A stretch of DNA of 64,000 nt from an uncultured Candidatus Binatia bacterium. GTDB taxonomy: Bacteria > Desulfobacterota > Binatia > Bin18. Where the stretch lies: assembly GCA_965243855.1 (NCBI GenBank), contig CBDEWE010000002.1, forward strand, positions 31,659 through 95,658, read 5' to 3'. The notes beneath the pieces were generated by a model. It made no database searches, had not been told where the DNA came from, and saw nothing but the letters and a program-made list of their open reading frames with translations. The position numbers and the translations under genes are program-made. Shown here in pieces: positions 24,652 to 27,004 of this stretch. How positions within the stretch are numbered: position 1 is the stretch's first letter; the number at the start of each line of letters is the position of its first letter.

Positions 24652-24885
24652 TTATCCTCCGCCGCGCCTGGCTGACCGCCGCGCCTCATACTCCGCGCGG
24701 CCGCGTTGCACCGCGTCAACACAGGAGTCGTAGAGGGCGAGGGCCTGCGCCTCGGTCATATCCCACTCGTGGGCATGGGCGGGGAGACACGGCCGGCAAA
24801 AGCGACTGTAGGTCTCCGTCAGCCCAAAGAAGCCGATACGCCGGTTGACGATCTCCGTCTTTGCGCCGCAATCTTCGCACGTCAT
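24652..24885 (-). CDS. Small putative Zn-binding protein
   Basis: CEDC...CRPC; overlaps the upstream stop codon. Confidence 0.55.
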   Translation of the reverse strand: MTCEDCGAKTEIVNRRIGFFGLTETYSRFCRPCLPAHAHEWDMTEAQALALYDSCVDAVQRGRAEYEARRSARRGGG

Positions 24886-25055
24886 GACGCCACCCCCTCA
24901 TCCCAGCCGGCCCACCCGGCCTGCTCGTCGCGTTCCGCGCCGGCCAGGGTCCGCACGATCTGGTCAAACACCCACATTTGATGATCCGCGCCGTCAAAGC
25001 CCCCATCCTGCATCGCCGGCTCAAGGGCCGGTTCGATCTTCTCCCGGTCGGTCAT
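24882..25055 (-). CDS. Small phage-like acidic protein
   Basis: DGADHQMWVFDQIVRTL...WDEGVA; RBS GGAG; 57 aa. Confidence 0.55.
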   Translation of the reverse strand: MTDREKIEPALEPAMQDGGFDGADHQMWVFDQIVRTLAGAERDEQAGWAGWDEGVAS

Positions 25056-25215
25056 GGCTCCCCCTCCTGATACTCCTCGGGCGCCACGCGCGCCAAGGAT
25101 CACGGCAATCGGCACCACATACGGCCACACCATTTGCACGATCTCCATCCACATAGCGTCGCTCCCTCCTCGCCGCGCCCCGCGTCACCGGGCCGGCCTG
25201 ACCGACCCGGTGGGG

Positions 25216-25593
25216 TTAGCGTTGCCAGGTCGTGATGTCCTCCTGCTCGGCCGCGTTGGTGGTCCGGTACTCGACCTTCTCGTTGCGGACCTCGATCTGG
25301 CCGCCCGTGGTTCCCAACCCGGCCGGCCAGGTTGCCCGCAGGAACGCGGACAGCTCCCCGTCGCTGTCCGCGTCGCGGCCGGCGATAAGCTGCCGGATAT
25401 AGTCATCCATCCGGGCGGCCGCGCTATCGGCCTCCAAGGCTTCCACGCTCAGCGTGTCCCCGTCGCCCAGCGCCCACAGGCTGTCCGCTGCGGCGGCCAG
25501 CTCGTGCAGATTCAGGATGCCGGTCGGGTGGTCCATGATGATGCGGTAGGTTGCCCCTCCGGGCATGGTCAGGGTGATACGGTACTTGGTCAT
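25216..25593 (-). CDS. Hypothetical protein
   Basis: RBS GGAGG; part of a tightly packed minus-strand operon. Confidence 0.6.
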   Translation of the reverse strand: MTKYRITLTMPGGATYRIIMDHPTGILNLHELAAAADSLWALGDGDTLSVEALEADSAAARMDDYIRQLIAGRDADSDGELSAFLRATWPAGLGTTGGQIEVRNEKVEYRTTNAAEQEDITTWQR

Positions 25594-25608
25594 TGCGTCT
25601 GCCTCCTG

Positions 25609-25821
25609 TTATTCCCACGGCTCTAGCTTCGTGAGGAATCGCTTGATGCCCCGCGCCTTGTTCTCGATGTCCGCGACCGTCACCAACAAGCTGCGGTAGG
25701 CGTCCCGCTGCCCTAAGTGTCGGCCTCTATACTCTTGCTCCCGCGCGATGTCCTCCTTCGTGCCCAGCTCGGCCACGATCACGCGCAAGAACTCGGTCTG
25801 CTCTCGCCGCATTTTCGCCAT
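25609..25821 (-). CDS. Hypothetical protein
   Basis: RBS GGAGG; operonic. Confidence 0.6.
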   Translation of the reverse strand: MAKMRREQTEFLRVIVAELGTKEDIAREQEYRGRHLGQRDAYRSLLVTVADIENKARGIKRFLTKLEPWE

Positions 25822-25841
25822 GTCTCGGACCTCCTTTCGGG

Positions 25842-26612
25842 TTAAGGGTTGATGCCGGTGATGTCCGGCAAGGGCTTTTTACTCATGCTCAGGGTGAAGC
25901 CGAGCCGTTGTTCCAGCGCGGCATACCGACGATACAGGTCCGGTTTGAGTTGGGCGGCTGTCCGCAAGTCCTGGGTGCTCGCCATGATGCAAAAGACACA
26001 CGACAAGCGGCTCATGCCGGCCTGGTAGGCCCAATGCGGCCGCTGGCCGGCGGCCTCGATCTCCGCGAACACTTCCGGCTTGGTCAGCGCATGGATGGGC
26101 AGCCAGTCGTACCAGATGCGCCCCGCGCGGCTGTTTCGTTCGTTCCGGGTCAAGGTCCGGAGCTTGGAACGCGCCGGGCTTTCCTCGGCGCGAAAGCCGA
26201 GACAGCTCACGATCCGCCCCCGATACTCCGGGTGCTCCTGGAGAAAGCGCCGAATAAACGTCTCGATGGGCGTCCGTTTCAGGTCGGACGTGCATTGCCG
26301 ATAGCTGGGGCTGGGAAACATGCCCCGCTGCTCGGCCATGTCCAACAGGCTTTTGGCAGCGGCCACATAGTAGACCGGGTGCGAAACCGTCGCCTCGATA
26401 TGCTCGGGCAGCCCGCCCCAATCGACCTCGTGTAAGATGGCATGGACGACGATCAACTGCCCGTTCGGGATCATGGGGGCCAGGCGCAAATACATGGCCT
26501 GCGAGTCTTTCCCCCCGCTGTGGTTCACCACGAACACAAAGCCCGCCTCGATCAGCCGCCGAATCTCGGTCAGCTCGACAGCGGCCGTGTCAAACATCCT
26601 GAACTGCTTCAT
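25842..26612 (-). CDS. Phosphoadenosine-phosphosulfate reductase family (PP-loop) protein
   Basis: SGGKDS, RQCTSDLK, GFRAEESPAR, SRLSCVFC; start overlaps the HNH stop. Confidence 0.9.
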   Translation of the reverse strand: MKQFRMFDTAAVELTEIRRLIEAGFVFVVNHSGGKDSQAMYLRLAPMIPNGQLIVVHAILHEVDWGGLPEHIEATVSHPVYYVAAAKSLLDMAEQRGMFPSPSYRQCTSDLKRTPIETFIRRFLQEHPEYRGRIVSCLGFRAEESPARSKLRTLTRNERNSRAGRIWYDWLPIHALTKPEVFAEIEAAGQRPHWAYQAGMSRLSCVFCIMASTQDLRTAAQLKPDLYRRYAALEQRLGFTLSMSKKPLPDITGINP

Positions 26613-27004
26613 GCTCCCCCCTCCTTTATGAGGCATTGGGTCCAGTCCCCCCGCTCCGCCATCAGCGCCTTGGCGGCCTGCGTGTCGAACGTCCTGGCGG
26701 CACAGCGCCGGACGTGGCGCTCGATCTCCCGCGCCTCGATGGTGTGGCCCACGTAGCCGGCGACCACCCGGCAAAAGCCCCGCACACTGCGGTTTTTGCG
26801 GCTGCTGTTGCAATGCTGACAGGCGGTGACAAGGTTCGTGGCTTCGTGCCCGCCGCCTTTGCTGACGGGCCGCAGATGATCCAAGGTGAGCAGCGCGCCG
26901 TCCTCCACCCCCTGCCCGCAATACGCACAGGCCAGCCCGTCACGCAGGTACAGGGCCAAGCGTTTTTCCTTTCTGATCCATGTTCCGCAGCGCTTCTGCT
27001 TCAT
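26609..27004 (-). CDS. HNH endonuclease
   Basis: RDGLACAYCG...TLDH..PVSKGG....NLVTACQHCNSSR. Confidence 0.92.
   Translation of the reverse strand: MKQKRCGTWIRKEKRLALYLRDGLACAYCGQGVEDGALLTLDHLRPVSKGGGHEATNLVTACQHCNSSRKNRSVRGFCRVVAGYVGHTIEAREIERHVRRCAARTFDTQAAKALMAERGDWTQCLIKEGGA

Follow-up and report, generated by a model that had tools for sequence, protein, structure and literature searches.

A NinC/PptA-type PP-loop enzyme encoded in a candidate leading-region operon on a conjugative plasmid-like contig of a Candidatus Binatia bacterium

The window, that is the whole stretch of 64,000 nucleotides analysed here, comes from an uncultured Candidatus Binatia bacterium and is part of a conjugative plasmid-like contig of about 110 kb, on which the conjugation genes VirB4-VirB11, VirD4, relaxase and MobC are present. 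Between positions 24652 and 27004 the open reading frame list and the sequence reveal six tightly packed minus-strand genes, two pairs of which are joined by ATGA overlaps (Table 1), and inspection of the sequence showed a Shine-Dalgarno-like motif ahead of each of the six. They encode an HNH protein, an enzyme related to PAPS reductases and four small proteins. Comparison with relatives detected purifying selection in five of the six genes (HNH, enzyme, orf70, orf125 and orf77; dN/dS 0.13-0.49). A conserved leader, which a preliminary description of this DNA had called hairpin copy A, ends 20 nucleotides before the HNH start. The arrangement given there, packed and partly overlapping minus-strand genes behind this hairpin, is confirmed by the ORFs, the overlaps and the position of the leader. 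The same description had a DUF1643 gene adjoining the operon. This gene is indeed on the same strand; it lies, however, outside the operon, with a plus-strand gene for a clan-AA aspartic protease between the two, and DUF1643 was not found in the roughly 6-kb flanks of the loci of close relatives. Sequence comparison gave no solved relative of DUF1643 and a literature search no functional paper on it.

Table 1 Features of the operon and its surroundings, in positions of the window (the slash marks the putative nick)
Feature	Position	Strand	Remark
Relaxase	17434-18600	-	PF03432
MobC	19451-19966	-	
oriT nick-region motif GCGTATCCTG/CC	20060..20071	+	3' of inverted repeat at 20015-20037; sets transfer direction
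DUF1643	23433-23984	-	Pfam 127 bits
Clan-AA aspartic protease gene	about 24086-24484	+	TIGR03698
orf77	24885..24652	-	CxxC...CxxC zinc-ribbon protein; ATGA overlap with orf90
orf90	25154..24882	-	hydrophobic N-terminus and 57-aa tail; alternative start 25057
orf125	25593..25216	-	variable cassette
orf70	25821..25609	-	small helical protein, variable cassette
PAPS_reduct-like enzyme gene	26612..25842	-	256 aa; ATGA overlap with HNH gene
HNH gene	27004..26609	-	131 aa
Conserved leader (about 150 nt)	27024..27170 (about)	-	
ArdC	41834-42712	-	operon's own strand

The core of the nick-region motif, ATCCTG/C, is found at 20064-20070 on the plus strand, and we take it to be the nick by analogy with RP4 and Ti oriT. 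MobC and the relaxase are encoded on the opposite side of it from the operon. With the motif read in this way the operon, about 4.6-6.9 kb away, would be on the leading, first-transferred side of an RP4/Ti-like nick site and, being on the minus strand, would have the transferred strand as its template. The leader consists of a long imperfect hairpin followed first by a second hairpin, TTTTTCCCGG...CCGGGAAAAA, and then by a T-rich tail, and its DNA fold has a z of -5.65. Three copies in the window could be aligned, and an nhmmer search found three, all on contig C2. Within the window the leader precedes both the HNH-PAPS operon and ArdC, and in the related loci L001, L006 and L007 nhmmer placed copies directly before HNH-PAPS, SSB and ArdC operons (SSB and ArdC in L001 and L006). 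Two observations support the leading-region location proposed in the preliminary description, namely the side of the nick motif on which the genes lie, with their template on the transferred strand, and the leader shared with ArdC. Leader-driven expression early in the recipient is probable. An Rfam scan of 19-46 kb gave no family for the leader, and a scan for sigma-70 promoters and terminators gave nothing above chance near the operon. When the leader was searched by eye for an Frpo-like F-type ssDNA promoter, a TTGCCA hexamer was seen in the distal arm, with no convincing -10 after it. A megablast of the locus against PLSDB returned no match.

The enzyme passes the Pfam cut-off for PAPS_reduct (PF01507, 29.6 bits against 22.5) and matches phrog_424 with an E value of 3.1e-36 (126 bits, profile positions 157-375 of 460), in the same region of the profile that is matched by lambda NinC (302 bits) and PptA (158 bits). 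By these profile matches we assign it to PHROG 424 together with NinC and PptA, which makes it a further example of a known family and not a new kind of system. To our knowledge, no member of the stand-alone PAPS-reductase-like family has a known biochemical activity. The SGGKDS PP-loop is intact and, like Cys107, Cys205 and Cys208, invariant in 36 sequences of 39-81% identity. A Cys...CxxC triad with CT..LK and G.RA.E motifs is present in the enzyme, in NinC and in PptA, and hhalign relates the enzyme to these two proteins with probabilities of 94.9% and 85%, respectively. The gene has a dN/dS of 0.13-0.17. The AF2 model of the enzyme (pLDDT 94.8) has the APS reductase 2goy as its top Foldseek match, and its CxxC aligns with Cys228 and Cys231 of 2goy, which are [4Fe-4S] ligands; among solved folds, APS and PAPS reductases come nearest, with TM scores of 0.56-0.58. 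A CysH identity was nonetheless rejected, because the last cysteine is C208 and the variable C-terminus is without a conserved one, so that there is no ECGLH-type catalytic cysteine. The best PADLOC matches were BrxP (45.9 bits), SspD (43.6 bits) and DndC (30.7 bits), which have a PP-loop and a cysteine cluster as the enzyme does and belong to systems that need a cysteine desulfurase. However, the enzyme is half the size of DndC and scores 24.6 bits against the TIGR03183 cut-off of 290.4, and none of the eight genes comprising the operon and its downstream neighbours matches a Dnd partner. SspD and BrxP were set aside likewise: nearly all SspD matches in related genomes reach 378-458 bits, with one weaker match at 140 bits, and the operon is without SspABC, DndADE or BREX partners.

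Lambda NinC (Nin 290, lambdap64) resembles the enzyme in its PP-loop, CT..LK, G.RA.E and C..C motifs and in being an early or accessory gene of a mobile genetic element. It differs in sequence (about 21% identity), in length (290 aa) and in its place in the phage nin region, whereas the enzyme is encoded in what we read as a plasmid leading region and its gene is coupled to that of an HNH protein. Among solved proteins the nearest relative in sequence is PptA of Vibrio phage vB_VhaP_VH-5, which is present with E. coli IscS in PDB entry 21fy; its C...CxxC motifs and C-terminal helical region align with those of the enzyme. The similarity is however weak: phmmer relates the two with an E value of 0.89, and the hhalign match is limited to the C-terminal 133 residues. 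The PP-loop of PptA is moreover degenerate (SCGAPS), so IscS binding may not carry over to the enzyme. Full-text literature searches found no paper on the solved PptA protein. In podophages of Vibrio crassostreae the PAPS-domain-Dam fusion p0018 has been genetically linked to escape from Dnd (Piel et al.; bioRxiv 10.1101/2021.05.05.442762). This is again a PAPS-reductase-like domain borne by a mobile element and tied to countering a phosphorothioate system; it is likened to the enzyme by description, not by sequence, and differs in being a phage-borne methylase fusion that was assayed with a second gene. Family 645, listed as 'PAPS reductase' under 'Other unknown leading families' in Supplementary file 3 of Samuel et al. 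2024 (Nature 635:186), has the same annotation and is enriched in plasmid leading regions, the likeness being again one of annotation and not of sequence. JSS1_004, taken from the anti-Dnd literature, is a kinase and not PAPS-like and was set aside.

The explanation that we favour, at roughly even odds (about 0.5), is that the PP-loop enzyme is expressed early and, working alone as a sulfur relay, counters host defence, probably systems of the phosphorothioate type. The operon would be leading-region cargo, transcribed early in the recipient from the repeated leader, which would also drive ArdC in the window and, in relatives, both SSB and ArdC. The core product, a NinC/PptA-type ATP pyrophosphatase acting alone, would act on a nucleic acid and adenylate one of its oxygens by means of the PP-loop. 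An Fe-S or persulfide sulfur-relay site may be held by the three invariant cysteines, with IscS, the cysteine desulfurase of the host, as the possible source of the sulfur. The plasmid DNA would then probably receive a phosphorothioate-like thiolation, or phosphorothioate-type defences would be blunted in another way. The HNH protein would be a lineage-specific, translationally coupled add-on, either a supplier of nicks or an independent nuclease, and the four small ORFs interchangeable cargo. An early-expressed DNA-modifying anti-defence function had been put forward in the preliminary description, and the leading side, the ArdC leader and the links of the NinC/PptA family to IscS and Dnd escape, observed elsewhere, argue for it; there was no sign of the alternative offered there, a modification of nucleotide signals. 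Few unexplained labels are as common on phages and plasmids as 'PAPS reductase family protein'. The locus puts a member of the family in a clear leading-region setting, in a genus with frequent Dnd and Ssp modification genes, and this setting permits a defined question, namely whether the family aids plasmid establishment in phosphorothioate-system recipients by way of host IscS. If it does, lambda NinC and a large gene family would be explained and a counter-defence principle added to plasmid biology.

In PLSDB, 1443 plasmids have a homologue of the enzyme, and 968 of these are predicted to be conjugative. Plasmids of Klebsiella, Salmonella and Escherichia, in their hundreds, carry more distant relatives of about 29% identity. 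Pfam scans of ten long domain-containing proteins turned up nothing beyond DUF6884 and a weak match to Tpt1, and a fusion to ParB or HNH was absent from this sample. The gene itself is dispensable, since it is deleted in one related plasmid and frameshifted in another copy. The four small ORFs differ between close relatives, and by this comparison they appear to be swappable cassettes. orf70 has no family match in Pfam, PHROG, TIGRFAM-type and PADLOC profile scans and, among the close relatives compared, a homologue only in L006 (84% identity, dN/dS 0.17). orf125, with no family match in the profile scans and nothing in an Atlas search, has a homologue in L007 (77% identity, dN/dS 0.49). Just the first 22 residues of orf90 recur, again in L007; it has a weak match to phrog_23179 (E 0.0015), and its start is uncertain because the internal ATG carries its own Shine-Dalgarno motif. 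orf77 is the small partner kept most widely, with homologues in L007, L016, L012 and L001 (dN/dS 0.14-0.23), and its Atlas look-alikes are unnamed phage protein clusters only. None of the four small ORFs resembles a known anti-defence family, so that their earlier designation as candidate anti-defence proteins derives from their position. This variation between relatives is what would be expected if the operon genes were unrelated neighbours that have neither a common role nor one in anti-defence, that is a selfish or packaging-type HNH, a mobile-element housekeeping enzyme of replication or recombination and filler ORFs. In 72 non-redundant loci the genes around the enzyme are of mixed kinds, and its prophage copies sit among replication genes (cro, O-like, DnaB), which would also fit. 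Nevertheless, the leader common to ArdC and SSB, the retained translational coupling and published work connecting the family with the leading region and with Dnd escape lead us to regard unrelated neighbours as unlikely.

The pairing with HNH bears on a further possibility. The HNH protein matches PF01844 with 48.2 bits against a cut-off of 21.4 (1.2e-12), its closest solved chain is 4h9d and its dN/dS is 0.27-0.37. In the alignment the catalytic residues D42, H43, N57 and N66 of the beta-beta-alpha-metal motif are invariant, as is the CxxC...CxxC zinc site (C26, C29, C62, C65). HNH and enzyme might form a minimal two-protein DNA thiolation machine, in which HNH would nick in the manner of SspB and the enzyme would adenylate the nick or backbone and insert IscS-derived sulfur, giving the plasmid a 'self' mark against phosphorothioate-sensing restriction. 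In favour of this, at least six loci retain the pair with its ATGA overlap although the HNH protein has diverged by 20-35%; purifying selection acts on both genes, no catalytic or zinc residue of HNH varies in the alignment, and the highest-scoring profiles for the enzyme are those of BrxP and SspD, both of them phosphorothioation enzymes. However, HNH was found next to the enzyme in none of 160 other enzyme loci (46-62% identity), close HNH relatives (55-62% identity) stand alone in phages beside Rad52 or terminase genes, and L016 has lost the enzyme gene and retains HNH and orf77. All paired loci moreover come from one plasmid lineage, so one ancestral event would explain the pairing. As judged from these comparisons the HNH partner appears confined to one close plasmid lineage, and we consider a two-protein machine quite unlikely. 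Its fullest form, a self-sufficient system that sulfur-marks the incoming plasmid (phosphorothioate or thio-base) minutes after entry with host IscS as sole aid, is somewhat less likely again; if true it would be the smallest known DNA thiolation machine and would show that conjugative plasmids have a general strategy, a 'forged self-mark', against Dnd, Ssp and BREX type 4. The absence of HNH from the other loci and its presence alone in phages, the variable small ORFs and the unlinked DUF1643 also tell against the one dedicated module of the preliminary description.

The favoured sulfur-relay enzyme could alternatively have RNA as its substrate. tRNA thiolases that depend on a [4Fe-4S] cluster have as their signature a PP-loop with exactly three conserved cysteines, and the sulfur for tRNA thiolation is donated by IscS. 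The enzyme shows this signature and TtuA structures are among its Foldseek matches, so it might thiolate host tRNA like TtuA, TtcA or NcsA and thereby reprogram translation or shield tRNAs from defence nucleases during establishment. TtuA is however a weaker match (TM 0.44-0.48) than APS reductase, the profile scores favour BrxP, SspD and DndC, and the recurrent neighbours and fusions are DNA methylases (Dcm upstream in 4 of the 72 loci, Dcm in a Serratia plasmid and the Dam fusion), all of which makes RNA thiolation decidedly doubtful. That the enzyme is an auxiliary sulfate-assimilation gene, a true CysH-like PAPS or APS reductase, is highly improbable even with its Pfam match and with 2goy and 1sur as closest solved folds, since the C-terminal catalytic cysteine is missing, the C-terminus is not conserved, the PP-loop is of the canonical ATP-pyrophosphatase type, no cys genes are nearby and the gene is accessory (2 of 27 other genomes of the genus) and sits in early regions of mobile elements. 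In the genus survey an SspE search gave no match, and none in the control genomes either; DndC was above the cut-off in 9 of 28 genomes and SspD in 6 of 28. A genuine DndC-like gene is located elsewhere, on the chromosome.

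The minus strand between 24652 and 27004 carries six packed, partly overlapping ORFs directly behind a structured leader (hairpin copy A), as ORF, Pfam and dN/dS analyses confirmed for the arrangement first noted in the preliminary description. ATGA overlaps join HNH to the enzyme (the PAPS_reduct-like protein) and orf90 to orf77, the remaining gaps are 15-61 nt and a GGAGG-like motif precedes each of the six starts. Against relatives, dN/dS was 0.13-0.17 for the enzyme, 0.27-0.37 for HNH, 0.14-0.23 for orf77, 0.17 for orf70 and 0.49 for orf125, indicating that these five are real genes. 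DUF1643, included earlier as a neighbour, does lie on the same strand, but an aspartic protease gene convergent with the operon intervenes and DUF1643 was not found in the ~6-kb flanks of close relatives' loci.

Coordinates of the features discussed (in the window unless stated)
Feature	Coordinates	Strand	Remarks
MobA/VirD2-type relaxase	17434-18600	-	
MobC	19451-19966	-	
Inverted repeat	20015-20037		just upstream of mobC
oriT nick-region motif GCGTATCCTGCC	20060-20071	+	after inverted repeat
DUF1643	23433-23984	-	Pfam; downstream of operon
Clan-AA aspartic protease	about 24086-24484	+	TIGR03698, retropepsin-like
orf77	24885..24652	-	
orf90	25154..24882	-	alternative plausible start 25057
orf125	25593..25216	-	
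orf70	25821..25609	-	
PAPS_reduct-like enzyme	26612..25842	-	256 aa; domain confirmed (Pfam)
HNH	27004..26609	-	131 aa; PF HNH domain confirmed (Pfam)
ArdC	41834-42712	-	
Leader copies	27024-27170, 42735-42884, 44506-44659		
Leader copies, L001 (relative's locus)	5432-5578, 9136-9289, 10890-11038		
Defence-island ORFs, L184 (chromosome)	9668-10852, 10849-12624, 12977-14248, 14706-15914, 17052-18428		

The window sits on a contig of 110 kb and 60.7% GC; the genome totals 4.96 Mb, and its chromosome contig is at 57.7% GC. The nearest public relatives are Candidatus Binatia MAG contigs. The 110-kb contig encodes VirB4, B5, B6, B8, B9, B10, B11 and VirD4 beside the mobilization genes. We read GCGTATCCTGCC as a nick region from its likeness to the RP4/Ti nick core ATCCTG|C. 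By this analogy the plus strand would be transferred, higher coordinates entering first, which would place the operon 4.6-6.9 kb inside the leading region; ArdC shares its orientation, with the presumed transferred strand as template. The same template strand is reported for anti-defence genes of leading regions (Samuel et al. 2024, Nature 635:186). The 12-mer recurs exactly at 31903-31914, near a divergent LuxR pair, within a 40-nt repeat (31895-31934) that is 75% identical to 20052-20091 and may be a second or vestigial oriT.

The case for placing the operon in one regulon with classical establishment genes rests most strongly on the leader common to both. This ~150-nt element ends 20 nt ahead of the HNH start and comprises a long imperfect hairpin, another hairpin with T and A runs on its flanks, and a tail rich in T. 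Folded as single-stranded DNA, the region is far more stable than shuffled controls (z = -5.65), and no Rfam family matches it. Further copies precede ArdC and a third gene at 44.5 kb, and a profile search of the genome found three copies, all confined to the plasmid contig. In the relatives L001, L006 and L007 the leader lies directly ahead of HNH-enzyme operons, SSB and ArdC, with several copies recurring every 2-3.5 kb in L006 and L007. Every operon of the leading region (those of HNH-enzyme, SSB and ArdC among them) has the leader immediately ahead of it, which makes the element a candidate promoter cassette for the leading region, or an ssDNA promoter.

The operon had been read as one anti-defence module. 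Leading position and the leader shared with ArdC and SSB favour the anti-defence part and make it unlikely that these are unrelated neighbours without a defence role, but the evidence on gene content, to which that alternative could appeal, does not support a single module. Among 160 loci from viruses and metagenomes that carry the enzyme (46-62% identity), none has this HNH alongside. Tightly linked upstream neighbours are heterogeneous (72 non-redundant), the commonest being a C5 DNA methylase (4/72); the enzyme gene sits after cro in prophages and adjoins a Dcm gene on a Serratia plasmid, and HNH relatives (55-62% identity) are solitary in phages, beside Rad52 or terminase genes. Two HNH-enzyme modules lying 8.6 kb apart on a single 80.6-kb Binatia MAG contig (L006 and L007, enzymes 87-89% identical to the window's) carry unlike cargo, orf70 versus orf125 and orf77. 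Because the pairing is lost outside the lineage, neighbours are mixed and small ORFs vary, the enzyme is the unit on which selection acts. The small ORFs are exchangeable cargo, and the proposal that they are anti-defence proteins found no backing, as none matches a known anti-defence family.

A true two-protein thiolation machine of HNH and enzyme would fit the retention of pair, overlap and leader in L001, L006, L007, L009 and L014/L015 (75-89% identity to the window for the enzyme, 65-80% for HNH), yet the 160 unpaired loci render it improbable. The pair is degraded in L016 (1079-1806), on a related plasmid, where leader, HNH and orf77 are retained and the enzyme is reduced to its last 27 codons; that plasmid's other copy (L014/L015 plus L012; G015:C2, across contig ends) has an apparent enzyme frameshift near codon 67-69. 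HNH is a partner specific to this lineage, of uncertain dependence.

The enzyme has a canonical PP-loop (SGGKDS) and, across 36 relatives (39-81% identity), only three conserved cysteines, C107 within RQCTSDLKR and C205 and C208 within RLSCxFC. Its AlphaFold model is confident (pLDDT 94.8) and, among solved structures, best matches APS reductase 2goy, CysH, FMN adenylyltransferase and TtuA; the CxxC aligns with 2goy Cys228/Cys231, the Fe-S ligands of that protein. CysH was ruled out, there being no cysteine beyond C208 and no conserved C-terminus, so that despite these structural matches a genuine sulfate-assimilation enzyme is barely credible. DndC (TIGR03183, 24.6 bits where the cut-off is 290) and SspD (43.6 bits, whereas almost every SspD match in related genomes scores 378-458) were likewise rejected. 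The enzyme belongs to PHROG 424 (126 bits), as do lambda NinC (302 bits; hhalign 94.9%) and PptA of Vibrio phage VH-5 (158 bits; hhalign 85%), which share its profile region. PptA is chain C of PDB 21fy, an entry that also contains E. coli IscS. A PAPS-domain-Dam fusion let a vibriophage grow on a Dnd-carrying host (bioRxiv 10.1101/2021.05.05.442762), and a PAPS-reductase family is entered under 'Other unknown leading families' (Samuel et al. 2024, Nature 635:186). An RNA thiolase, to which the TtuA match might point, seems rather improbable beside the DNA methylases that recur as neighbours and as the fusion partner. We give a probability of about 0.5 to an early-expressed, stand-alone NinC/PptA-type PP-loop protein that would take sulfur from its host to modify nucleic acid and would act against defence systems. 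The family is already known though uncharacterised and the locus adds one member, valuable as a clean test case.

Phosphorothioation genes are common in the genus, with DndC above cut-off in 9/28 genomes, the window genome included, and SspD in 6/28; a plasmid that passes between such hosts would frequently encounter phosphorothioation systems, known here from modification genes. A chromosomal defence island of the window genome (L184, G000:C3:4357000-4376900) carries a DndC-like gene (376 bits; at 394 aa it falls short of the model's length), overlapped by the gene of a HEC-06/Orf5/SspE-like DUF262-type protein, together with a DndB-like gene, PDC-S01 and a type II methylase; DndD and DndE were not seen among the large ORFs scanned there. 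The enzyme gene is accessory (of the genus's 27 other genomes, 2 have it), and its broader family occurs on 1443 PLSDB plasmids, of which 968 are predicted to be conjugative. Hundreds of PLSDB plasmids from Klebsiella, Salmonella and Escherichia have a distant relative (about 29% identity), often at one position about 2.7-3.5 kb from the record start, apparently as part of the backbone of a single widespread group of plasmids.
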